Shown here: piece by piece, positions 7,174 to 22,100 of the stretch | Layout: each line of letters opens with the position of its first letter | Position numbering within the stretch: the first letter of the stretch is position 1 | Assembly: GCA_048883105.1 (NCBI GenBank) | Contig: JBHLQY010000002.1 | Location: 1 to 60,564, forward strand | Length of the DNA stretch: 60,564 bases | Direction: 5' to 3' | DNA from: Candidatus Thorarchaeota archaeon | GTDB lineage: Archaea > Asgardarchaeota > Lokiarchaeia > Sigyniarchaeales > SOKP01 | Notes under the pieces: generated by a model | What the model was told of the DNA's origin: nothing | The model's database searches: none | Seen by the model: the letters and a program-made list of their open reading frames with translations, nothing else | Translations under genes and position numbers: made by a program

Positions 7174-8432
7174 TTCAAAGTGAAATATCAGCAAAAAATA
7201 AAAAAGTAGAAATCTTAACAGGAAATCATGCAGCTGCTTATGCATTTAGACAAGCAAGGGTAGGTGTCATTTCTGCCTATCCGATAACGCCTCAAAGCCC
7301 CGTTGTAGAGAAAATATCTGAATTTATTCGTGATGGGAAATTAAAAGCAAGATTTCTGATGGTTGAATCTGAACATTCTGCGGCTGCGGCTTGTTGCGCA
7401 GCTTCTGCTACAGGTTCAAGAGTGGGGACTGCGACTTCAGCACACGGTCTTATGCTAATGTATGAGCTTTTGCCGTGGGCATCAGGAACTAGATTGCCCA
7501 TTGTAATAAATTTAGCTACTAGAAGCTGTGGAGCCCCTTGGTCAGTTTGGGATGACCATTCAGATTTCATTACGGTAAGAGATGTTGGCTGGATTCAATT
7601 TATGTGCGAAGATAATCAAGAAATCTATGATACCAACATTCAGGCATTTAAAATAGCAGAAGATCCAAGAGTCTATCTACCTACAATCGTAGCTTATGAT
7701 GGCTATATTCTCTCGCATACTATGATGCCAGTATTGTTAGAAACCCAAATGGAGATTGATGAATTCTTACCTCCAATAAAACATCACATTAATTTATCAG
7801 ATCTCTCACAAGTAAAAGGAGTAGGACCGGTGACATTACCTAATGTTGTGAAGAGAAAGGAAGGAACAGCTCCAGGTTATTACGAATTTAGATACTCTTT
7901 ACAAAAGGCTTTAGAAAATTCTATTGATGTTATTATAGAGGTTCATGACGAGTTCGCAGAGAAATTTGGTAGATCTTATGGAAATGGATTGTTTAAAACA
8001 TTTAAAACGGAAGATGCTGATACAATTATTTTCTGTATGGGATCGGTTTCTTCGCAAGCGAAAACTGTTATTAAAAAACTGCGAAATGAAGGAATAAAGC
8101 TAGGCTTAGTAAGTTTAAGATTATTTAGACCTTTTCCTGTGAAATATTTAAGGGAATTTTTTAAAGGCAAAAAGAATGTTATAGTTTTTGATAGAGAAAT
8201 AGGTTATGGATACGAAGGTGTTTTATCATATGAATTAAAAGCTGCGCTCTATGGTTTAAAAGATTATCCTTTTATTAAGGGTTTTATTGTCGGATTAGGT
8301 GGAAGGGATGTAAAAAATGAACATATTATAGATGGAGTTCATAGAGCTTTAGAAGAATCTAAAAAGGGGGATATTATACATGAAACTGAATTTTTAGGAT
8401 TGAAATTAGATGAACTAGATTTTTTGGATTGA
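7170..8432 (+). CDS. porA: Pyruvate/2-oxoacid:ferredoxin oxidoreductase, alpha subunit
   Basis: LTGNHAAAYAFRQARVGVISAYPITPQS is the typical POR alpha N-terminus. The ATG at 7170 overlaps the porD stop codon (ATGA). The ORF-track start at 7107 would overlap porD by 67 nt. Confidence 0.85.
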   Translation: MIQSEISAKNKKVEILTGNHAAAYAFRQARVGVISAYPITPQSPVVEKISEFIRDGKLKARFLMVESEHSAAAACCAASATGSRVGTATSAHGLMLMYELLPWASGTRLPIVINLATRSCGAPWSVWDDHSDFITVRDVGWIQFMCEDNQEIYDTNIQAFKIAEDPRVYLPTIVAYDGYILSHTMMPVLLETQMEIDEFLPPIKHHINLSDLSQVKGVGPVTLPNVVKRKEGTAPGYYEFRYSLQKALENSIDVIIEVHDEFAEKFGRSYGNGLFKTFKTEDADTIIFCMGSVSSQAKTVIKKLRNEGIKLGLVSLRLFRPFPVKYLREFFKGKKNVIVFDREIGYGYEGVLSYELKAALYGLKDYPFIKGFIVGLGGRDVKNEHIIDGVHRALEESKKGDIIHETEFLGLKLDELDFLD

Positions 8433-8436
8433 GGGG

Positions 8437-9345
8437 ATGAGAAATATGGTAAAAGTAATGGATGTTCGAGAAGAGGAATTTATATATCCAGGCACAAGAA
8501 TGTGTGCCGGATGTGCGATGGCGCTAATTTATAGAGTTGCTCTTAAAGCTCTTGGTCCAAAAACGATACTTACGGTGCCTGCTTCGTGTCTGACAGTACT
8601 TCATGGAATGCAAGGTTTTTGTACTACTAAGCTTTCTGTACTTCATACTCCTTTTGCGACTACGGGAGCTGCTGCCTCTGGTATAGTAGCATCATTGGAA
8701 GAAAAAGGTCTGGGCGATGAAATAACTGTAGTTGCATTCGCTGGTGATGGGGGTACTACTGATATTGGTATTCAAGCACTTAGTGGAGCCGCAGAAAGAG
8801 GTACCGATTTCATTTATGCTTGTTATGATAATGAGGCGTATATGAATACAGGGGTTCAGAGGAGTGGATCAACACCTCTCGGAGCCTTCACAGCAACGAC
8901 TCCGGGGGGAAAAAAATTACCTAAAAAGAATATGCCAAAAATTCTTGAAGCTCATGGAATTCCGTATGTAGCAACTGCTAACGGTTCTTATCCTCTTGAT
9001 TTGTATGAAAAATTTCAAAAAGCCCGAGATATAAAAGGAACTAGATATATACATATTCTTTCAGCTTGCCCTCCAGGTTGGGGTTATGATCCAAAAGATT
9101 CAATCAAAGTGGGAAGATTGGCCACAGAAACGGGATTCTGGCCTTTGTACGAAGTTATTAATGGTAAATTCATCTTATCTAATATTAGTAAGAAATATTT
9201 GGATCCTTCTAATAGAAAACCTGTTGAAGAATATTTAAAAGCTCAAAAGAGATTTAGTAGAATAACTGCTGAAGAAATTATTCAGTATAAAGCATATATC
9301 GATGGTCAATGGAACGAAATCAAATTAAGATTAGAAAGTCAATGA
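8437..9345 (+). CDS. porB: Pyruvate/2-oxoacid:ferredoxin oxidoreductase, beta subunit (TPP-binding)
   Basis: CAGCAM near the N-terminus, and a GDGGTTDIG...YDNEAYMNTG TPP-binding motif. An alternative ATG at 8446 is better spaced from the gagggg Shine-Dalgarno-like element. Confidence 0.85.
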   Translation: MRNMVKVMDVREEEFIYPGTRMCAGCAMALIYRVALKALGPKTILTVPASCLTVLHGMQGFCTTKLSVLHTPFATTGAAASGIVASLEEKGLGDEITVVAFAGDGGTTDIGIQALSGAAERGTDFIYACYDNEAYMNTGVQRSGSTPLGAFTATTPGGKKLPKKNMPKILEAHGIPYVATANGSYPLDLYEKFQKARDIKGTRYIHILSACPPGWGYDPKDSIKVGRLATETGFWPLYEVINGKFILSNISKKYLDPSNRKPVEEYLKAQKRFSRITAEEIIQYKAYIDGQWNEIKLRLESQ

Positions 9346-9514
9346 TTTATTTAGCTATTTACTAAAATTATCTTATATCCTGTTTTTTCGTAAATTTTTA
9401 TGCACACATTTTTTAATTTTTAACTTCTTATATCTTCTATTCATTTAAATTAAAATTATTAAAACACCATTAGATTGATAAATTAATAACCTTTAATATA
9501 CTAAAATTAATGTC

Positions 9515-12937: not shown

Positions 12938-15007
12938 ATGGAATTTTTAAATGAGTTAATTGATAATTTCGAGAATCAAAAGATTATAAGTTTTAGAAAT
13001 AAAAGAACTTCTGGTGTTGTTTATACACCAAATGAAATTGCTGATTTTATTGTAAAAAGTATATTTAAAATTTGCATCAAAGATTTACTCCAATTATATG
13101 GATATTTTACGAAAGAATTGGATATCCATAATATAATTCAAATTTTAGTTAGCAATGAGGAATTAAAGGAAGTCATAAATAAGAAGATTGAAAATATTAA
13201 GATTTTAGATCCTTCTTGTGGTTCTGGAAGATTTTTAATTTCTGTAGCAAAATTATTATACAATTTAAGGAAGAAAATTAATCCTAGTTTGAAAGAATTT
13301 GACTTGAAAAAGAAAATTATTCAAAATAATATTTATGGAATAGACATTGATAAATCTACATGCTATATCTCAAAATTAAGGTTAATGAATTGGGTATATT
13401 CAGATCAATCAGATCAAACATTATATCAAAATATTATAGAAACTGATTTAAAAAACCTAAATACAAATGATATTGGGAAAATTATTCAACAATATGATGT
13501 AAAATTTAATGTTTATAATTTGGATTATCTATTAGAATTTGATAAAGATAATTATTTTGATTTTATAATTGGAAATCCTCCCTATATTGAAAATAAGAAA
13601 TTAAAAAACACCTTATACAAAAAACAGTTATATAAAAAGTTCTACTCGGCTTATCGGTTATTTGACATTTCAATTTTATTTATTGAAAAATCTTTACAAG
13701 TATTAAAAAAAAATATAGGATACCTTTCATTTATTTTACCTAATAAATTTTTATCTTCGGATTACGGTATTAAAATAAGAGATTTATTAATAAATAAAAC
13801 AGAACTTATAGAGATTATTAATATTTCCTCATTACCTGTTTTTCACAAAAAAGCAACATATCCCGTAATCCTCTCTCTTAAAAATAGATTTCCAAGTGGT
13901 TCTAATGAAATAATCATAAAAACTTATAGTGATATCGGGGAAATCTTTAAATCCAATGTTTCAAAATTCTTTATTTTATCTCAGAAATTAATTAATCAAC
14001 TTCCATCTAAAGTTATTCCAATTTCAGGTAATATAGAATTAATTAATCACCTCTATTCTAAATTTAAAACGATTTCAGAGACGTTTAATGATTTAAAAAT
14101 TATATATAGACCATTTGGGTTTTTGAAATACAGCAAATTTTTTGATAATATCAGTGAAAAAAGAAAATCTAAAAAAGATCTACTTCTAATTGGAACCGGA
14201 AATGTAGGAAAATATCATCTAAAATATAAAAAGCGAATTAAAATAGCTAAAAAAGATATAAAAGTTTCATATTTCAATTATAAACCAGATTTTCAAGATA
14301 TTTGGGATGACCTCAGCAGTGAAAAAATAATATTTAGAGAAATCGCTAAGGATTTGACATGTGTATTTGATCTTGGTGTTTTGACGAACATCACAGGACT
14401 ATACTTTATTAGAATTCCCTCAATCGATATAAATAAACTATTTTGTCTCATGACGATCTTAAATTCTAAATTCATAGATACAGTTTTTAAAAGCCTTTTT
14501 AGCACTTTGCATATGTCAGGAGGTTATTTAAGGTTCAACGGAAGTTTCATTAAAAGATTGCCAATGCCTAACCAGTTTCCAGTTTCTTTATATCATATAG
14601 GAAAGGTTATTCAATTTCTTTCGCAATTGAAATATGAAATGAATACTCAATCAGAATTGAAGATTTTTAGAGAAATAAATACCACAAATATTAAAACATA
14701 TTTAGATTTCTTTAAAAAATTAGCAAATTCCTTAGTTTTTTTATTATACTTAGAAGAAAACTACGAGAAATCGAATAAATCCTATAATTTTTTATATAAT
14801 ATTTTATATTCAGAAGATTATTTTCCTAATATTCAATTAAAATATTTAACACCTCGTTTTAATTTGGCAAATTTTAAAATTTTTCCTTTTGAAAAATTAA
14901 AATCAGAACTACTCCAAATTACAAATTTGTACAATAAAATAAAAGCGAATAAAAAAATACAGATAGAAATAGAGAATATAATGAAATTTTCTCCTTCTTA
15001 TTTATAA
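12938..15007 (+). CDS. Gamma-class N6-adenine DNA methyltransferase, Eco57I/TaqI-like, with a C-terminal target-recognition domain
   Basis: - GVVYTPNEIADFIV.
- Motif I ILDPSCGSGRFL.
- Motif IV IIGNPPYI.
- C-terminal LNSKFIDTVF...GGYLRFNGSFIKRLPMP resembles TaqI-type specificity domains.
- No nuclease domain is recognisable. Confidence 0.8.
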   Translation: MEFLNELIDNFENQKIISFRNKRTSGVVYTPNEIADFIVKSIFKICIKDLLQLYGYFTKELDIHNIIQILVSNEELKEVINKKIENIKILDPSCGSGRFLISVAKLLYNLRKKINPSLKEFDLKKKIIQNNIYGIDIDKSTCYISKLRLMNWVYSDQSDQTLYQNIIETDLKNLNTNDIGKIIQQYDVKFNVYNLDYLLEFDKDNYFDFIIGNPPYIENKKLKNTLYKKQLYKKFYSAYRLFDISILFIEKSLQVLKKNIGYLSFILPNKFLSSDYGIKIRDLLINKTELIEIINISSLPVFHKKATYPVILSLKNRFPSGSNEIIIKTYSDIGEIFKSNVSKFFILSQKLINQLPSKVIPISGNIELINHLYSKFKTISETFNDLKIIYRPFGFLKYSKFFDNISEKRKSKKDLLLIGTGNVGKYHLKYKKRIKIAKKDIKVSYFNYKPDFQDIWDDLSSEKIIFREIAKDLTCVFDLGVLTNITGLYFIRIPSIDINKLFCLMTILNSKFIDTVFKSLFSTLHMSGGYLRFNGSFIKRLPMPNQFPVSLYHIGKVIQFLSQLKYEMNTQSELKIFREINTTNIKTYLDFFKKLANSLVFLLYLEENYEKSNKSYNFLYNILYSEDYFPNIQLKYLTPRFNLANFKIFPFEKLKSELLQITNLYNKIKANKKIQIEIENIMKFSPSYL

Positions 15008-15088: not shown

Positions 15089-16054
15089 ATGAAAGAATTA
15101 AAAAACAAATATGTGAGAAGCGTGATAAAGCTTGGTAATTCTTACGCGATGACATTTCCGCAAGAATGGACAAATCAAGCTAACTTGAAAGAGAAATCTG
15201 AAGTAACATTATATCCAATCGATGACAGATCAATTATTATAAGAACATTTGATAAGGAAAAAAAGACAATTTTCAATATCGATGGAAATGAATGGCCTGT
15301 TAAATTAATAAAACAAGCTATAATCTCTGCTTTTAAATTAAATGTAGACGAGATTTACATAAAATATAATGATGATAATCAAGAAGACATTTACAAACTC
15401 ATAATTAATTTGGAAAGGGAAACTATAGGTTTTGATTTCAAAGATAATTCTGAAAGAAAAGAATTTTTTATAAATTTCTTATTAGACACATCAAGCAAAC
15501 CGTTTCAAGATATATTAATGGATCTCTCAGAAGTCTTTAGAAGAATTATAAAAAATGTCATTGAAGGGATAACTAAAAAGAATAGTGAATTATTATTGGC
15601 AGAGATAGAACGCAAATATAGTCTAGGAACGAGGATTCTTATTACAGGTCTTAGCGACTATCCTGTATCAGAAGGTTATCGAAATATACCTTTAATTAGA
15701 TTTCTTGGCGATAGGGTTATGCTCCTCTATATTAGAGATTTTATTAACGAGGCTTTAACTTTAAAGCTCATATCGAATGATATAATTAAAAAATTTTCAG
15801 AAATTTTAATTAAAATCCCAAGCTTGTTAATTAATTTAATTAAAAATTATGATAATATAAATCTAGATTCAATTTCAAACTTTCAAGGATATTTAAGTAA
15901 ATTAGGAATGATGCTCGAGAATTTTGCATATGAGGAATCAAATATAGAAGTGCAGCAAGTTAGAAATAAAATTAAATATTATTTGAATAGTTTCCAAAAC
16001 TTTTTCGATATCGGAATAACACGACTTATAGAATCTGAGATCGGTATGGTATAA
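15089..16054 (+). CDS. AbrB/SpoVT-type DNA-binding domain fused to a PhoU-like helical domain (putative regulator)
   Basis: The N-terminus VIKLGNSYAMTFPQEWTNQANLKEKSEVTLYPIDDRSIIIR is a looped-hinge-helix AbrB pattern. About 270 aa of helical sequence follow, as in archaeal PhoU homologues. Confidence 0.55.
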   Translation: MKELKNKYVRSVIKLGNSYAMTFPQEWTNQANLKEKSEVTLYPIDDRSIIIRTFDKEKKTIFNIDGNEWPVKLIKQAIISAFKLNVDEIYIKYNDDNQEDIYKLIINLERETIGFDFKDNSERKEFFINFLLDTSSKPFQDILMDLSEVFRRIIKNVIEGITKKNSELLLAEIERKYSLGTRILITGLSDYPVSEGYRNIPLIRFLGDRVMLLYIRDFINEALTLKLISNDIIKKFSEILIKIPSLLINLIKNYDNINLDSISNFQGYLSKLGMMLENFAYEESNIEVQQVRNKIKYYLNSFQNFFDIGITRLIESEIGMV

Positions 16055-16153: not shown

Positions 16154-16528
16154 ATGGCTAAAAAAAAGAAACTACCAGCAGAGACAGAAAATGATGAAAT
16201 CCCTTCAGGTAAAATTGATGAAGATGGAGATGAAATTTTAGATTTATATGATGAAAAAGATGACTTAACTGAAGATTTAATCTACGACCTTAGTGAAATA
16301 GAAGATGAGATGTTAGTCGATGAGACTGAAGATGAGGAATTTGGCTATGAAGTTAATGAAGTCGAAAAAATGATGAGAAAAATTAAGTGCGAACCTTGTC
16401 CAGGCAGTGATAGTAAGCCAGAATGTAAAGTTAGAGATGATTTTGGGTGTCCGCCTGGAAAAGAATCAAAAAAGAAGCCCTGGACCGAAGCAGAAAGAAA
16501 AAGATCGGGAAAAAGTAAGAAAAAATAA
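16154..16528 (+). CDS. Hypothetical bipartite acidic/basic protein with a four-Cys cluster
   Basis: 124 aa. A Lys-rich N-terminus is followed by about 60 aa dominated by D/E, then KCEPCPGSDSKPECKVRDDFGCPPG and a Lys-rich tail. Confidence 0.4.
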   Translation: MAKKKKLPAETENDEIPSGKIDEDGDEILDLYDEKDDLTEDLIYDLSEIEDEMLVDETEDEEFGYEVNEVEKMMRKIKCEPCPGSDSKPECKVRDDFGCPPGKESKKKPWTEAERKRSGKSKKK

Positions 16529-16538
16529 CTTATTTCGC

Positions 16539-17522
16539 ATGCTAACTAAAATTAAAAAGTATTTCATTTTATTTATCATTGATATTTTAATTAGTGCGTT
16601 TATTTGGCATATAAATGCTTCCTGGGGAAATACTTTTTGGACTTGTTTAATTTTATCTACTACAACTTTTTTAATCATCTTTACACCTTTTCAAATTTAT
16701 TTTAGTTGGAGAGATATATATTTTGATAGATGGGAAAATCTATATTTAAAAGAGCTCGAGATTTCAAAAGTAAAAGTTAAGGTTGAGGGTGGATATTTAT
16801 ATGCCGATTTAATAAAATCGAAAAATCAAGAGGCCAGAAACTCAAAAAATACTGTAGTAATTATTAGCCCTGGTTTTTCTGACAAAAAAGAAAGCCTTCA
16901 ATATTATTATTTTCCTTTAGCATATCATGGTTATATAATTTTAGCTTACGATGCGAGAGGGATTGGAGAATCTAAAAAAGCGGGTAATAGAAGCGACTTT
17001 TTAAAACGAATAGATGATTTTATTAGAATAATCGAATGGCTAAAAACTAGTGATAAGTTTAGCCAAATGAAGATTTATTCGGTTGGTTTAAGTATTGGAG
17101 CCTTAACTGTATTATGCGGAGGTTTTCCAAATAAAGATGTTGATAAAATAATTGCTATTTCTTCAATGTCAGATTATAAAAAAAATATATTAGAATCAAA
17201 TCTAATAGTTAAGTTAAGTTACTTAATGAAAGGTATTAGTTTTTCTCCTGATGATATAGAAAATCGGAAGTTATCTCCATCAATCTTAATTAAAGATATA
17301 AGAAACTCTCTCTCTGAAGTTGAATGGAAACTTTTCTCAGAAAGAGTTTTGTTAATACACACCAGAAACGATAAGATAATTCCATTCAAAAATTTTGAAG
17401 AAAATTGTCTAATTTTAGAGTCCTCCGATAAAAATCAAGTAATTCTATCAAAAGGAGGGCATACACAAAAAAAAAATGAATTAGTTTTAGTTGGAGCCAC
17501 TCTTAGATTTTTTAATGAATAA
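16539..17522 (+). CDS. Membrane-anchored alpha/beta-fold hydrolase
   Basis: - Hydrophobic N-terminal helices.
- Nucleophile elbow VGLSIGA (GxSxG).
- AYDARGIGES and a C-terminal GGHTQ.
- The ATG at 16539 avoids the 122-nt overlap with the upstream ORF that the 16407 start implies. Confidence 0.65.
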   Translation: MLTKIKKYFILFIIDILISAFIWHINASWGNTFWTCLILSTTTFLIIFTPFQIYFSWRDIYFDRWENLYLKELEISKVKVKVEGGYLYADLIKSKNQEARNSKNTVVIISPGFSDKKESLQYYYFPLAYHGYIILAYDARGIGESKKAGNRSDFLKRIDDFIRIIEWLKTSDKFSQMKIYSVGLSIGALTVLCGGFPNKDVDKIIAISSMSDYKKNILESNLIVKLSYLMKGISFSPDDIENRKLSPSILIKDIRNSLSEVEWKLFSERVLLIHTRNDKIIPFKNFEENCLILESSDKNQVILSKGGHTQKKNELVLVGATLRFFNE

Positions 17523-18683
17523 TCAAAATGTTTTAATCAATGTTAAAATCGATTCAACAGCTAATTCAATACTTAAGTTGATTGATTTTAATTTTTTTTC
17601 AAAATAATTTGAATTGTTTTGAGATTTTTCAATTTCATTAAAAAGATCAAAAAATTGCTTTTGACTTTCTAGTTCCATAGAAAATACGTTAGATCGGGAT
17701 GTAGCATCTCCCATCATTACAAGACATCCATGATCATGGAAATGTTTAACTGCAGTATAATTAGTTTCCCAGAGTTTATCTTTTAACTTATTATAAACTT
17801 TTTTTGCTACATTCTCGCAACAATCTTTGCTTTTCTCGCTGTGGCAAAAGTAAAAAGGCAATTTGTCCTTATTTGTTGTCATGTATTCTAATAATTTTTC
17901 GAAAACTGTATCTAATTGTTTAATACTTAAGCTTATATGATTATGGTTTGCGGAAGGGGTGCATTTAAAAAATAGAGGTTTTTTATAATATTTTATATGA
18001 TAAAGCTCCATTACGTTTAGTATAATACCTTCTTTGAGCCAATGATCAAATTTATAGCTGATAGACTCTTTCATTAAGTTCTTACTCAATTCTTTTGGAA
18101 TTCTTTCAAGAAGAGATGTTTCATGAAAATCTAATATATAAATAGGCATATTTTCTTTTTCCCAGTATTTCTTGAGTATTTTTTTCACAATATTAGCATG
18201 TTCTGGAATAGGATATTCAATATGATCATCATTATAATTGTTATAATCAGGAGCAAATGTTCTACGCCAGAATCTATTAAGATTCGTCCCGTCTTTTAAA
18301 TAATACCCAGATTTATTGTGTATAGAAGGGTTGAGGAAACCGTAAGGGTTCATTAATGGAAAAAAAATTAAAATCTGGTCTTCCTTTAAAATTTCATTTA
18401 CTGAGATTTTTTGATTTTGAACCATTTTAAGAAATTCTAAAATACCAAATAATCCATTATATTCATTATGTTGAGCACCAACAAAGATTTTTACATATTT
18501 AACTTTATCAATATCAAAATCTTTCCCGATATATATGATAGGGAGAGTGCCCTCTGAGACAATGAATGTCTCATAAACTACATCATTTAAATTATTTAGG
18601 TGCTCTAAAAAATTTAAAATTTTTTCAAATAACTTTTGTCTTCTGGATATATTTAACAAGTCTTTTAAGGTTTCAAGTTTCAT
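17523..18683 (-). CDS. M14-family zinc carboxypeptidase-like / deacylase-like protein
   Basis: Motifs occur in canonical M14 order: GAQHNEYNG (H72-x2-E75), MNPYG, TNLNRFW and LDFHET (H187). About 190 aa of unassigned C-terminal sequence follow. Confidence 0.6.
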   Translation of the reverse strand: MKLETLKDLLNISRRQKLFEKILNFLEHLNNLNDVVYETFIVSEGTLPIIYIGKDFDIDKVKYVKIFVGAQHNEYNGLFGILEFLKMVQNQKISVNEILKEDQILIFFPLMNPYGFLNPSIHNKSGYYLKDGTNLNRFWRRTFAPDYNNYNDDHIEYPIPEHANIVKKILKKYWEKENMPIYILDFHETSLLERIPKELSKNLMKESISYKFDHWLKEGIILNVMELYHIKYYKKPLFFKCTPSANHNHISLSIKQLDTVFEKLLEYMTTNKDKLPFYFCHSEKSKDCCENVAKKVYNKLKDKLWETNYTAVKHFHDHGCLVMMGDATSRSNVFSMELESQKQFFDLFNEIEKSQNNSNYFEKKLKSINLSIELAVESILTLIKTF

Positions 18684-18695
18684 AATTTTTCAATT

Positions 18696-20138
18696 CTAAC
18701 CAATAATTTGGCCCCAATCTGAGAACTCAATAATTTGTTGAAAATTTTTGGCCATGCTTACAAACATTACACATCCAATACAAAAAATATTTACAAAATC
18801 ATCTATGGATAAATTCAAGAGCTTACTATTATTTTCGGAAACTCCTTGGCCTCGTTCAACTTCTATGACTCCATCAAATCCAGATAAATTTACAACAAAT
18901 TCTTGTTTGTCTAAAGTTCCATGATAACTGCCTCTTGCTATTCTTGCTAATCCCCCAATTGGGATAATTTTTCCATTTATCTGAGACATATAAATCCTTA
19001 AATCGAAGGTGTGTTTGCCCCCTTTCCAGTCTATTAAAGAAAAATCAGCCATTTCTTGGATTGTGTATGGATAGGGATTTCGATTTTTCATGAATTTCGC
19101 AAAAAATTCTTTCTTACTCTCCTCTATTAGATTTTTAATATTGGATGGATCTTCGTCTGGAGATATCGGAAGGACTCCTGCTCCCCCAGAACCGCCATCA
19201 GGCTTAATTATAAAAGGTTTTTTATATTTTTTTATGATATATCCCAATTTTTCTATTAATTCACTCTCATTATAAGCTTTTGTAAATAGAAGATATTTTA
19301 AATTATACTTTTTAAGGATGTCCTTAGCAAAATAACTTGCTAAATAAGTTAGCGATTTATCATCCGTAACTCGATAAATAGGATTAACGATAATTGTGTG
19401 AATTTTTCGAAAATCTTTTCTTATTAACTGAGTAAACACATCATTTTGAAACCGACGCGCAATACCATCTCCTATAAGAACGCTAATTTTAGAAACCTCT
19501 TGAAATTTGAACCAATTTTCTGAAAAGGATAAAGTTGTGGATAACTGCTTGTAATCAGCAATTAAAAACGCAACGTCAACATTGAAATCCTCTTTAAAAT
19601 TGTTAACATTAAATATATCTACCGAAAGCTCTCTTTTTCTTATTTTTTTTCTTAAATAATCAATCAATATAACTTTTTCGTGGATTAAACCATCATCTAT
19701 CGGAACTCCAACAAGAACAAGAACTTTATTATCTCCACGCGTATTGTTTTTAATAGCTTGAGAAATAGCTTCAAAATATCCATTATACATAATAGTTTGT
19801 TGTTTTTTTGTGAGGATGGAAAGCCCGCGATTTGAACCGCCATTAGTCTCCAAAAGAAAAAATTTCTTTCCTCCTGGCTCATCACACACCATAAAATCAA
19901 TACTGCCAGCATAGAATAAATCGTTGTTGCTTAAGTAGTTATCTTTATCTCTTTCCATCTTCCTCAAAGCTTTTTGCCTAACAGCATCAGCAAAATTATC
20001 CTCTTGAGACGCTCTTAAATCAGCAAATAGTACTAGATCTAATCCTAAGGATTTTCCTAAATTAACTAAATCTAAATCTGAGTCTGATATTTCTTTAGAC
20101 ATCAGCTTCACGAATTTAGAGAGCTTATTATCATCCAT
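18696..20138 (-). CDS. ATP-grasp amino-acid/peptide ligase, TTL/YheCD-like, apparently circularly permuted
   Basis: - NPIYRVTDDKSL at aa 252.
- Phosphate loop FIIKPDGGSGGAGV at aa 309.
- FDLRIYM at aa 378.
- GGLARIARG at aa 395.
- An E-x-N type segment, FFLLETNGGSNRG, lies at aa 93-105 instead of at the C-terminus. Confidence 0.7.
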   Translation of the reverse strand: MDDNKLSKFVKLMSKEISDSDLDLVNLGKSLGLDLVLFADLRASQEDNFADAVRQKALRKMERDKDNYLSNNDLFYAGSIDFMVCDEPGGKKFFLLETNGGSNRGLSILTKKQQTIMYNGYFEAISQAIKNNTRGDNKVLVLVGVPIDDGLIHEKVILIDYLRKKIRKRELSVDIFNVNNFKEDFNVDVAFLIADYKQLSTTLSFSENWFKFQEVSKISVLIGDGIARRFQNDVFTQLIRKDFRKIHTIIVNPIYRVTDDKSLTYLASYFAKDILKKYNLKYLLFTKAYNESELIEKLGYIIKKYKKPFIIKPDGGSGGAGVLPISPDEDPSNIKNLIEESKKEFFAKFMKNRNPYPYTIQEMADFSLIDWKGGKHTFDLRIYMSQINGKIIPIGGLARIARGSYHGTLDKQEFVVNLSGFDGVIEVERGQGVSENNSKLLNLSIDDFVNIFCIGCVMFVSMAKNFQQIIEFSDWGQIIG

Positions 20139-20172: not shown

Positions 20173-21405
20173 TTATAAATATAAATAACCTTGATGATTT
20201 CCCTTTATACTAAGCCTTAAACTCCCCAATAAGATTTTTTTGACTTTTATTTGCTCTTTATAAGATAAATCAGAAAATATTAATATATAGTTTTTTTCTA
20301 AATTTATAACAAATAGAAGTCCTATTTTTATCAATTTTGAATCCTTGTCAAGCAATGAAATTATCACATAGTGATAAGGGAGTTTAATTAATTCGCTAAT
20401 ATCAATCTCTCTTTCAATAATTTCGTTAGTCTCAGTATTATAATCAGACTTTACAAATTTAATATCATTCAAAGAAATAGAGATTTTTCTATAATCCTTT
20501 AAAACCTTAGCAAATTGACTTTGCCTTAAAAATCTTCTTTCTTCCTTATCCTTTTCGTAAAAGTATTTATTATCTTCCTTAATTAAATATACTTTTCTAT
20601 CTTTTCTTAATCTAGCGATTTTTACTATAGTTTTTAATTCTTTAATTGTATCATCGTGAAATACGATTAAAATATCAGGATTTATCATTTCGATAAAAAA
20701 ATTTTTATATATGACACCTGCTTCTTGCTTTATCCAGCCATCCGTATCAATTAATACAAAATTAGTGTCTATATGATTTCTTATATACTCATCAACTAAA
20801 TTCTTACAATAATGCGACACTATAAATTTATAATTTCCTTTTGGAAATGTGGCTCCTATAAATACTGTGCTCTCTGAATCAATATCTTCGCCGGAAATAA
20901 TCGAATCCTTAATTGTTCCAATATTAAGAGTAGTTGGCAAATACATTATCTGTTGTCCTAAATCAGAATCAAGATAACCTCCTTTAAATCCCTCCTTAAG
21001 GAAACTATTAGCTAAATATTTGATTATAGTTGTTTTTCCACTACTAATCCCCAAAACCATAATTTTTAATGGTTTTCCCTCTTTTTCTTTAAATTCTTCT
21101 AAAATGGCATTCTTAATTTCAATCCATCTGTTAGATATCGAATTTTCCTTAATTAATTTAAGACTTTCTTTTTCGTTAGATGTATATATCTCTAATTTTG
21201 ATTTTTCTAACGCAAATAACGGGTAATGATTAGCACTAGGAATAATTATGACGTAGTCTTCATTAAATTCTGAAAAATCTAAATTTGAACTTTTTTTATC
21301 TGGAAGAATTGTTTTTCCAAGTACTTCTAATTTTCCTTCTAATAAAGTTATTCTCGTCGGCCCTTTTACTAACAGCGTATGTCCTTTTTCGATATTTTTA
21401 ATCAT
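20173..21405 (-). CDS. clp1: Clp1/Grc3-family polynucleotide 5'-hydroxyl kinase
   Basis: - The N-terminus LLVKGPTRITLLEGKLEVLG is typical of the Clp1 N-domain.
- The P-loop is LGISSGKTT.
- LDSDLGQQ matches the Clp1 DxDxGQ motif. Confidence 0.75.
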   Translation of the reverse strand: MIKNIEKGHTLLVKGPTRITLLEGKLEVLGKTILPDKKSSNLDFSEFNEDYVIIIPSANHYPLFALEKSKLEIYTSNEKESLKLIKENSISNRWIEIKNAILEEFKEKEGKPLKIMVLGISSGKTTIIKYLANSFLKEGFKGGYLDSDLGQQIMYLPTTLNIGTIKDSIISGEDIDSESTVFIGATFPKGNYKFIVSHYCKNLVDEYIRNHIDTNFVLIDTDGWIKQEAGVIYKNFFIEMINPDILIVFHDDTIKELKTIVKIARLRKDRKVYLIKEDNKYFYEKDKEERRFLRQSQFAKVLKDYRKISISLNDIKFVKSDYNTETNEIIEREIDISELIKLPYHYVIISLLDKDSKLIKIGLLFVINLEKNYILIFSDLSYKEQIKVKKILLGSLRLSIKGNHQGYLYL

Positions 21406-21478: not shown

Positions 21479-22000
21479 TTAAATACTACTACTTTTTTTA
21501 ATCCTTTTATAACAAGGAATACATAGGTTTTTTCCTTTATCCTCTTTTATTCTAGTGATCATTGTAGGATCACCACACTTATCGCAGATAATAGATTCGT
21601 ATATCTGAGCTTTCTCAGGAGGATTAAATTCGACTTTTCGAAAGTCGAAAATATCTTTAGGGTTGGATTTTAATAATTCTTTTATTCGCTCTTCTTTCGA
21701 TGATGGAAGATCTCCAAATCTCCTACTTTTTAAAGATATTTTTAATGCTTTTTTATTTGTTCTATTATAAAAAGTGTAATTATTTTTTCCATAATCTAAA
21801 TATATTAAATTACCTTTCCCAAATGTTGTTCCTAATAATGCTTGAATAGCATCAACGCTACAATTATCATTTTCCACTACTGCAACCAGCTCCTCGTCGG
21901 TACTAAATTCATTGTCATGTTCTAGAATGTATTTAGATACTAAAACGCCTATTGCGACACCGGGACAAGAATGTCCATGGAAATTAACTGCTTTTTTCAT
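21479..22000 (-). CDS. FmdE-family protein (formylmethanofuran dehydrogenase subunit E-like) with a C-terminal zinc ribbon
   Basis: FHGHSCPGVAIG is the family signature. C-terminal CDKCGDP...CIPCY forms the zinc ribbon. An ATG lies at 22000; the ORF track extends to a TTG at 22033. Confidence 0.8.
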   Translation of the reverse strand: MKKAVNFHGHSCPGVAIGVLVSKYILEHDNEFSTDEELVAVVENDNCSVDAIQALLGTTFGKGNLIYLDYGKNNYTFYNRTNKKALKISLKSRRFGDLPSSKEERIKELLKSNPKDIFDFRKVEFNPPEKAQIYESIICDKCGDPTMITRIKEDKGKNLCIPCYKRIKKSSSI

Positions 22001-22100
22001 TAATTCTCTAACTTCCAAATTGATAAGCACCAATACTAGATTTAATAAAATGAATCTTCTACATAATTTATAAAATCTTCTTATTTTTTATATATTATAG

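Follow-up and report, generated by a model that had tools for sequence, protein, structure and literature searches.

Two adjacent genes in a 60,564 bp stretch of DNA from a Candidatus Thorarchaeota archaeon (contig JBHLQY010000002.1 of GenBank assembly GCA_048883105.1; the whole stretch is called the window below) encode an ATP-grasp carboxylate-amine ligase of 480 aa, AG480 (positions 18696..20138, minus strand), and a 386 aa zinc hydrolase, M386 (17523..18683, minus strand). The open reading frames (ORFs) are co-directional with a gap of 12 bp, as reported in an initial annotation made from the sequence alone. AG480 represents an unnamed family and is circularly permuted, with the E-x-N hairpin placed ahead of the pre-ATP-grasp and central domains. 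M386 is, on its structural model, a divergent member of the M14 clan that resembles carboxypeptidases and deacylases, and orthologs of M386 or hydrolases of the AstE/AspA family are also found beside distantly related ligases in unrelated gene contexts. On balance, the two proteins probably form an antagonistic amide synthetase/hydrolase pair that acts on one amide bond, in a pathway that may be coupled to RNA-end or nucleotide-phosphate processing.

AG480 and the order of its ATP-grasp elements

AG480 was assigned from its ORF, sub-threshold Pfam matches, an AlphaFold (AF2) model and Foldseek comparisons. The sequence motifs lie where the initial annotation had placed them, with NPIYRVTDDKSL at residues 252-263, FIIKPDGGSGGAGV at 309-322, FDLRIYM at 378-384 and GGLARIARG at 395-403, and with IDFMVCDEPGGKKFFLLETNGGSNRG (80-105) and KVLVLVGVP (138-146) in the N-terminal part. 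The central ATP-grasp core (residues 252-403; 18930..19385, minus strand), delimited from motif positions, conservation and alignments, includes N252..DK261, K312 with the GGSGGAG loop, FDLRIY with R381, and GGLARIA. A beta-hairpin (residues 77-105; 19824..19910, minus strand), which the model builds from strands 77-87 and 90-99, carries the predicted Mg/ATP ligands D81, E97 and N99. The order along the chain is hairpin (77-99), Rossmann-like domain (139-250), N252..DK261, K312/GGSGGAG, R381 and GGLARIA.

The AF2 model, built on 30 orthologs (predicted local distance difference test, pLDDT, 83.6; predicted template modelling score, pTM, 0.87), contains only helices after residue 403. The C-terminal 77 residues are almost all helical, and neither the model nor the alignment includes a hairpin or a conserved E-x-N in this segment, in agreement with the earlier proposal that the Mg-binding hairpin is missing from the C-terminus. 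D81, E97, N99, K312 and R381 show hardly any variation in the family alignment A3 (40 sequences, down to 17% identity), and in another alignment K312 and the GGSGGAG loop (309-322) are invariant. As D81, E97 and N99 are retained down to 17% identity, the N-terminal E-x-N hairpin is not a chance match. The order of the elements, these near-invariant ligands and the fold matches described below confirm the circular permutation that had been deduced from the sequence. When AG480 was aligned with the non-permuted pyruvate carboxylase 2dzd, the hairpin aligned after the ATP loop, in a stretch that scores about 0 bits and is illustrative only. Placing residues 1-105 behind residue 480 left the Pfam scores unchanged, and no match bridged the long helical linker.

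The best Foldseek matches in the PDB are human, yeast and plant glutathione and homoglutathione synthetases, with E-values of 4e-11 to 1e-8 over 450-480 aligned columns. They are followed by 3n6x (4.3e-8), deposited as a 'putative glutathionylspermidine synthase', and by glutathionylspermidine synthetase (GspS) from E. coli (2io8; 1.3e-5). The top 24 matches are all glutathione synthetase (GS), GS-like proteins, 3n6x or GspS (4e-11 to 1e-4; 426-480 columns; template modelling (TM) scores of 0.29-0.40). Non-permuted Ddl and RimK are found only at about 1e-4 or weaker (8e-4 for RimK 4iwx), and tubulin tyrosine ligase (TTL) and TTL-like (TTLL) proteins are absent from the top 50 PDB fold matches. 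The top matches are permuted enzymes, and the possibility left open by the initial annotation, that AG480 is an ordinary non-permuted metabolic ATP-grasp enzyme, was not borne out. A search of a viral structure library gave one local TTL-family match, to a giant-virus TTL protein (E = 5.5e-3).

Sequence profiles gave matches below threshold. AG480 scores 20.2 bits against Pfam YheCD (PF14398; cut-off 26.8), aligning with profile positions 27-149 of 255 only, and matches GSH-S_ATP at a sub-threshold 1e-3. Scanned individually, the 30 orthologs matched ATPgrasp_ST (30), GSH-S_ATP (29), YheCD (26, counted at E <= 0.1; best 7.9e-8), CP_ATPgrasp_2 (11), TTL (2) and RimK (1). Some family members bear a precomputed PF14398 label. 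None of the matches reaches into the C-terminal half of PF14398, in keeping with the permutation. The matches to CP_ATPgrasp_2, a model of a permuted family, are all sub-threshold (best E = 1.5e-4; about 19 bits, where the cut-off is 32) and the profile match ends at about residue 400. The two TTL (PF03133) matches are also below threshold (best 4.9e-4), and the scans of AG480 returned no match to CP_ATPgrasp_1 or to the Pfam eukaryotic glutathione synthetase models. The ATP loop of PurD aligns to residues 269-330. Searches of PDB sequences with the AG480 profile found local ATP-loop matches only, among them TTLL7 (E = 0.0011) and biotin carboxylases, and no glutathione synthetase.

The initial description of AG480 as 'TTL/YheCD-like' fits only a local similarity in the central domain, which for TTL consists of the IKP..G-loop, KFDLRIY and GLxR. 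Over the full length, the closest structures are GS and small-molecule ligases of the GspS type. TTL and RimK are non-permuted whereas AG480 is permuted, and AG480 falls below the Pfam TTL and RimK thresholds. Eukaryotic GS (human 2hgs/8fbz, yeast 1m0w, plant homoglutathione synthetase 3kal) is a classic circularly permuted ATP-grasp enzyme whose E-x-N hairpin, which binds Mg, lies close to the N-terminus, and AG480 is of similar length (approximately 470-480 aa). However, no relation between the two is seen at the sequence level, the domain packing differs, and eukaryotic GS is without a paired hydrolase whereas AG480 has one. Assignment of AG480 as an RNA ligase resembling C12orf29/RLIG1 (PMC11494293) was considered and rejected, since AG480 carries the residues of a classic carboxylate-amine ligase and matches amidoligases in fold.

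When 1.84 billion representative proteins were searched exhaustively with a profile, only 91 representatives of the AG480 family were found at E <= 1e-3, and the family has no Pfam or NCBIfam model of its own. A set of 5.8 billion proteins contains 461 relatives. The best 120 of these are 65-100% identical to AG480, and every named one among them is a 'hypothetical protein' of an Asgard metagenome-assembled genome (MAG). Among GTDB species representatives, 133 loci carry a relative, so that the family occurs in no fewer than 133 genomes at species level, and the best 80 of the 133 loci are all Asgard (58-96% identity). Some members are larger: P0321 (674 aa), a distant relative, has an N-terminal GPP34/GOLPH3 fusion (Pfam 6.4e-31), and P0323 (602 aa) has an unannotated N-terminal extension of about 170 residues. 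In one bacterial-looking context (L081:8001-10732), a relative with 21% identity overlaps a downstream MFS transporter gene by 4 bp, which hints that at least some of the family's branches synthesise a small molecule for export.

The divergent M14-clan hydrolase M386

M386 was assigned from its AF2 model (pLDDT 89.6, pTM 0.91), Foldseek comparisons and the Pfam matches of its orthologs. Foldseek found 87 PDB matches at E <= 1e-3 (best 1.2e-7), and the 50 listed of these 87 are all M14 carboxypeptidases or M14-type (probability 1.00, TM 0.34-0.51), as the initial annotation had anticipated. They include REP34, the bacterial CCP-type 3l2n, 4a37, 4b6z and 3k2k, as well as carboxypeptidases A, B and D (CPA, CPB, CPD). 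M386 itself gave nothing significant in Pfam, NCBIfam or PDB sequence searches, and the M386 profile gave nothing significant in the PDB. Among 30 orthologs, 8 match Pfam Peptidase_M14 (E <= 0.1) and 4 match AstE_AspA_cat, and one ortholog that is 55% identical (P0232) scores 26.5 with Peptidase_M14 over residues 42-270, above the gathering score of 21.6. The modelled structure thus places M386 in the M14 clan as a divergent member with the M14 fold.

Three of the M14 motifs reported initially were found as described, namely NPYG (residues 112-115), NLNRFW (134-139) and DFH (185-187). The fourth was given as H72xxE75, but the segment reads Q71-H72-N73-E74 and residue 75 is Tyr. H72-N73-E74 (18462..18470, minus strand) is predicted from the alignment to be a variant zinc motif, H-x-E, and is kept in the 29%-identical ortholog at the divergent locus L086. 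Comparison of 'AQH-NE' in M386 with 'AQHGDE' in the AstE/AspA protein that accompanies the ligase at locus L087 indicates a one-residue deletion inside the canonical HxxE. H187 of the DFH motif (18123..18125, minus strand), invariant in alignments A2 and A4, is the predicted third zinc ligand. N134-L-N136-R137-F-W139 (18267..18284, minus strand) is, from its invariance, the likely alpha-carboxylate binding site, and we take N136 and R137 to be the equivalents of N144 and R145 of carboxypeptidase A.

The candidate general base is E337 (17673..17675, minus strand), which is invariant and lies in the strand 'FSMELESQK' (residues 333-341 of the model). It was assigned by analogy with the M14 'FTFELR' strand and with E270 of carboxypeptidase A. 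Alignment A2 shows no variation at E74, H187, N136, R137, K124, E337 and E339, and hardly any at H72; N136 and R137 are also invariant in a six-sequence alignment that includes the AstE/AspA partner. The catalytic residues of M386 look intact, as a near-complete set.

M386 departs from known M14-type enzymes in several ways. About 150 mostly helical residues lie between H187 and E337, whereas approximately 74 residues separate the corresponding His and catalytic Glu in carboxypeptidase A. The model begins with two helices (3-31) and one hairpin (35-53), followed by the core strand, and has no N-terminal beta-sandwich domain. An N-terminal beta-sandwich is typical of, and defines, the CCPs, so that M386 differs from these in both the missing N-domain and the presence of H-x-E in place of HxxE. 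With AstE/AspA, M386 has 'AQH..E.NG', 'PL.NP..F' and 'N.NR' in common, but it differs in the one-residue deletion in the zinc motif, the insertion of approximately 150 residues and the extra N- and C-terminal helices. The M386 profile aligned to the AstE protein of L087 with an hhalign probability of 7%, over the N-terminal 75 columns only.

Gene linkage and the X400 family

Close relatives of the locus were compared using the 80 best Asgard loci (L001-L080), with the informative loci as denominators. M386 is directly downstream of the ligase on the same strand in 53/73 loci, and a Clp1 gene is found up to 300 bp upstream of the ligase, also on the same strand, in 62/72. An alpha/beta-hydrolase gene convergent with the ligase lies within 1.7 kb in 66/66 loci and directly follows the ligase where M386 is missing. 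In the ligase protein tree M386 is ancestral and has undergone at least 6 independent losses, with the ligase always retained; M386 is dispensable to the ligase. At one locus, L065, tblastn detected a short stretch with 55% identity to M386 just downstream of 7932-9368, between the ligase and the alpha/beta-hydrolase approximately 216 bp away, and may be the remnant of a decaying gene.

More distant ligases are found in entirely different surroundings. In L086, the ligase is 42% identical to AG480 and an M386 ortholog (29% identity, E = 5e-26) begins 20 bp downstream, with genes for EF1A, S7 and S10 and a ubiquitin/E1/E2/RING cluster around the pair. The ligase of L087 (35% identical) is adjacent to a bona fide AstE_AspA hydrolase (Pfam 2.5e-27), with L11, L1 and NusG nearby. 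An AstE_AspA hydrolase is also adjacent to the ligase in L089 (34% identical), where the flanks look bacterial, and in L091 (30% identical), where it is on the opposite strand. In L094, the ligase (36%, from hhalign) has a convergent Peptidase_M20 gene. Same-strand gaps between ligase and hydrolase in the divergent loci range from -11 to 45 bp. The initial annotation had proposed conservation as neighbours in related archaea as a check of the pairing, and this is seen both in the 53 close loci and in these contexts. The link between ligase and amidohydrolase is real, because an M386 ortholog or an AstE/AspA gene is found beside ligases of 30-42% identity in unrelated contexts, but it is not obligatory.

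Two of these divergent loci have further features. A few kb upstream of the ligase-M386 pair in L086 (146-3669) are a eukaryote-like cluster of genes for a RING finger protein, ubiquitin, E2 and E1/ThiF (with a weak match to a ubiquitin domain) and a gene for a protein that has a domain resembling the GIFT domain of IFT52. The Peptidase_M20 gene of L094 (9648-11081, minus strand) includes a dimerisation domain, and the locus is without any M14-clan gene; the M20 gene may be a non-orthologous replacement of the hydrolase partner.

A second gene recurs near the divergent ligases and is the most frequent of their partners. X400 (L087:3132-4358, L089:5799-6989, L091:378-1571, L086:11620-12828 and L094:7001-8212, all outside the window) encodes a protein of about 400 aa from a widespread archaeal family with a few bacterial-MAG members. 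The family has 460 matches, every named one of which is 'hypothetical', and X400 has no Pfam or NCBIfam domain match or model. X400 is directly upstream of the ligase in L087, L089 and L091, with gaps of 12-32 bp. The gene string is ligase, M386, Metallophos, HD and X400 in L086, and Metallophos, HD, X400 and ligase in L094. This makes five divergent contexts in which X400 and the ligase are linked, mostly with gaps of 12-50 bp. Directly before X400 in the last two loci (L086:9377-11604 and L094:4772-6984), both on contigs labelled Lokiarchaeota, are genes for a Metallophos phosphodiesterase of approximately 540 aa and an HD phosphohydrolase of approximately 195 aa. The Metallophos-HD-X400 string looks like an RNA end-healing and sealing set beside the ligase.

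X400 is likely to be a compact member of the RtcB superfamily, judging from its conserved residues. The invariant residues C107 (PNACG), N149-H150 (NHFIE), H175, H251 and H330 (PHGGGY), with the end ...VLKI, have counterparts in C78 (DIGCG), N167-H168 (GNHFIE), H185, H281 and H337 (SHGAGR), with the end ...VCVKG, of E. coli RtcB. The five catalytic motifs are in the same order with similar spacing, and the C-terminal strand is similar, but the segment from the Cys to Asn-His is 42 residues in X400 and 89 in E. coli RtcB. RtcB entries were the sole PDB matches of the X400 profile (E = 0.23), and hhalign of X400 with E. coli RtcB gave E = 3e-4 and a probability of 40%. Pfam RtcB is matched by 2 of 25 X400 members (best 0.0029), and the profile is not passed. 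The invariant, fixed-length C-terminus of X400 was considered as a possible tail acceptor, but it is probably structural, as RtcB ends in a similar strand (...VVCVKG). X400 and Clp1 share no homology with each other.

In the window itself, a Clp1-type P-loop polynucleotide kinase gene (20173..21405, minus strand; Pfam CLP1_P 6e-26) is located 34 bp upstream of AG480 on the same strand. A gene for an FmdE-domain protein with a C4 zinc ribbon (21479..22033, minus strand; Pfam FmdE 1.5e-33, zf-dskA_traR 3.8e-7) is 73 bp upstream of clp1, also on the same strand, and is a member of the collinear block. Both had been recognised in the initial annotation. Clp1 was absent from all of the divergent ligase contexts examined; it is a probable operon partner of the ligase in this clade, and a functional link is unproven. 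Among L001-L080, the interval of about 1 kb between FmdE and Clp1 contains an extra gene of about 254 aa in 46 loci and a gene of about 147 aa, in a similar position, in 24. Both are absent from the window.

On the other side, an alpha/beta-hydrolase gene (S33/S9-like; 16407..17522, plus strand; Pfam Hydrolase_4 6.9e-12) is convergent to M386, and the two stop codons abut. The called start of this ORF (GTG at 16407) overlaps a gene for a 124 aa protein (16154-16528, plus strand), so that the hydrolase probably starts further downstream. The 124 aa protein has a highly acidic N-terminal half, the pattern C-x2-C ... C ... C and a Lys-rich C-terminus. It has no Pfam match, and about 65 of the 80 loci have it in the same place. 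Further away are an Eco57I/MmeI-type N6 DNA methylase gene (12938-15007, plus strand; Pfam 3.6e-32) and, after it, a gene for a 321 aa protein with a MazE/AbrB-like N-terminal domain (15089-16054, plus strand). Of the 80 related loci, only about 10 gave a tblastn match to the 321 aa gene. A search of the defence-system library PADLOC gave no match for AG480, M386, Clp1, X400 or the AstE protein.

Possible functions of the ligase-hydrolase pair

From the conserved residues and the fold matches we infer the following chemistry. AG480 would bind Mg-ATP with the displaced D81/E97/N99 hairpin and with K312, R381 and the GGSGGAG loop, and would turn a carboxylate of the substrate into an acyl-phosphate, which would then react with the amino group of an amino acid or a comparable amine. 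M386 would recognise the product by its free alpha-carboxylate, held by N136/R137, and hydrolyse the bond that AG480 makes, with H72, E74 and H187 as zinc ligands and E337 as the base. It would serve as an accessory eraser or recycler that the ligase can do without. As the acceptor, a small molecule or short peptide is favoured over a long protein tail because of the GS and GspS fold neighbours and the AstE/AspA, and possibly M20, partners. The recurrent RtcB-like X400, Metallophos and HD neighbours, together with Clp1 in the window, suggest a coupling of the pathway to RNA-end or nucleotide-phosphate processing and not to the cytoskeleton.

The general arrangement has precedents. Pairs of ATP-grasp ligases and peptidases are reportedly a known kind, covered in the amidoligase survey of Iyer et al. 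from 2009. A permuted ATP-grasp synthetase combined with a hydrolase of the bond it makes is the logic of GspS (E. coli Gss, 2io8) and trypanothione synthetase-amidase (TryS), and the one proposed for AG480-M386. The hydrolase of GspS and TryS is a fused CHAP/papain-like amidase domain, unlike the separate M14-clan zinc enzyme of the AG480 system. In TryS from Leishmania, the synthetase and the hydrolase act on one bond as 'conflicting activities' (PMC2427367). The TTL/TTLL-CCP (M14D) system and RimK-S6 tailing also have the add/remove logic of an ATP-grasp writer and a metallocarboxypeptidase eraser in common with the pair.

A purely metabolic synthetase and hydrolase that have no RNA link, next to which X400 and Clp1 are found by coincidence, would be an alternative, which we regard as possible but unlikely. 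AG480 might then make a gamma-glutamyl or dipeptide-like metabolite, a low-molecular-weight thiol or the glutamyl tail of a cofactor, to be recycled by M386 or AstE/AspA. GS, homoglutathione synthetase and GspS as the best structural matches of AG480, and hydrolase partners from the AstE/AspA and M20 families, speak for such a role, and GspS and TryS join a permuted ATP-grasp to an amidase (PMC2427367). The overlap of the 21%-identical relative with an MFS transporter gene agrees with it, as does another AG480 relative, whose neighbours include an Opp peptide transporter and a gene resembling ornithine cyclodeaminase. However, the linkage to X400 in five contexts, mostly at 12-50 bp, is hard to call chance, and no other biosynthetic genes, such as one for gamma-glutamylcysteine ligase, were seen in any neighbourhood. 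That the two enzymes are unrelated, and neighbours only through collinearity of Asgard genomes, is highly improbable. Synteny over +-10 kb in the 80 loci and the repeated loss of M386 with retention of AG480 would fit, but this explanation is largely refuted by the divergent loci, where an M386 ortholog follows the ligase (L086) or an AstE/AspA gene lies beside it (L087, L089, L091) within wholly different flanks and at same-strand gaps of -11 to 45 bp.

Editing of protein C-terminal tails, in which AG480 adds Glu, Tyr, Gly or another residue in the manner of TTL/TTLL or RimK and M386 trims in the manner of CCP/M14 enzymes, was the analogy drawn in the initial annotation and appears rather improbable. 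RimK carries out tailing of ribosomal protein S6, and translation genes surround divergent ligases (EF1A, S7 and S10 in L086; L11, L1 and NusG in L087). The best sequence-level matches of the central domain are TTLL7 (0.0011), YheC/D and the giant-virus TTL, but Pfam TTL is found in just 2/30 AG480 members, below threshold, and the full-length fold neighbours are small-molecule ligases, with TTL/TTLL outside the top 50 PDB matches. Similarly, M386 keeps the N-R pair, which in M14 enzymes binds a C-terminal carboxylate (N136/R137 in M386), and the CCP-type 3l2n, 4a37 and 4b6z are among its top fold matches, but it is without the CCP-type N-terminal beta-sandwich. The alternative partners point the same way, as AstE/AspA and M20 enzymes typically act on small N-acyl amino acids, and AstE/AspA enzymes are known for such substrates and not for protein tails. 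The C-terminus of X400 could in principle accept a tail, but it mirrors the terminal strand of RtcB. Tubulin, FtsZ, S6 and LysW-like genes, which the initial annotation had also looked for, are not among the annotated neighbours at any locus examined (not every neighbour is annotated). The add/remove pair survives from that annotation as antagonistic enzymes with linked genes, but its tubulin-tail analogy is without supporting evidence.

Several findings weigh against an antagonistic pair coupled to RNA-end or nucleotide-phosphate processing. No substrate of AG480 or M386 was identified in the loci examined. M386 is missing from 20/73 loci (27%), and L088 (ligase 35% identical) and L084 (29%) have neither a hydrolase partner nor X400. 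ORF clustering indicates that the entire +-10 kb is collinear across the 80 Asgard loci, so that adjacency inside this close set is weak evidence, and synteny alone may explain why Clp1, FmdE and the alpha/beta-hydrolase lie near the ligase. With its non-canonical H-x-E, M386 could be catalytically altered. For the ligase, no Pfam model of any permuted ATP-grasp family reaches threshold, and the A3 profile has no sequence-level link to E. coli YgiC (GspS-type; hhalign probability 1%); as AG480 fails the curated GS and GspS profiles, it forms a separate family with the same architecture. The TM-scores to GS are 0.35-0.40 with a root mean square deviation of approximately 17 A, hence the domain arrangement differs. 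These low scores mean that the architecture is common but the packing is not, and that the fold is uninformative on the substrate. The homology of X400 to RtcB is moderate only (40% by hhalign, E = 0.23 in the PDB), neither the window nor any of the 80 close loci, where Clp1 takes the upstream position, contains X400, and in Odinarchaeum X400 occurs without the ligase.

A broader proposal, which we consider doubtful, is that X400, the permuted amidoligase and an M14, AstE or M20 hydrolase, often with Metallophos and HD and, in the clade of the window, with the Clp1 kinase as the upstream gene, constitute a hitherto unrecognised archaeal module that couples RNA-end or nucleotide-phosphate ligation to reversible amino-acid ligation. 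Such a module might put an aminoacyl or peptidyl mark on a nucleotide, a phosphorylated metabolite or an RNA end and take it off again. Another possibility is that C-terminal tailing acts as an on/off switch for an RNA-repair ligase or kinase.

The literature searched makes no mention of the AG480 family, the H-x-E hydrolase variant or the RtcB-like linkage, and it includes no description of a connection between amidoligases and RNA-end healing and sealing. None of the terms ATP-grasp, glutathione, carboxypeptidase and Clp1 occurs in the accessible text of a structure-based survey of Asgard proteomes from 2026 (PMC12962969). For the TTL/CCP tubulin-tail analogy, which would be relevant to eukaryogenesis, there is so far no evidence. 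AG480 adds an unnamed family to the ATP-grasp enzymes that share the rare permutation of eukaryotic GS and GspS. AG480 and M386 are single, soluble-looking proteins, and their predicted make-and-break chemistry is directly testable. If the link of the ligase to X400 and the phosphoesterases is functional, amidoligase chemistry would be joined to RNA-end healing and sealing.

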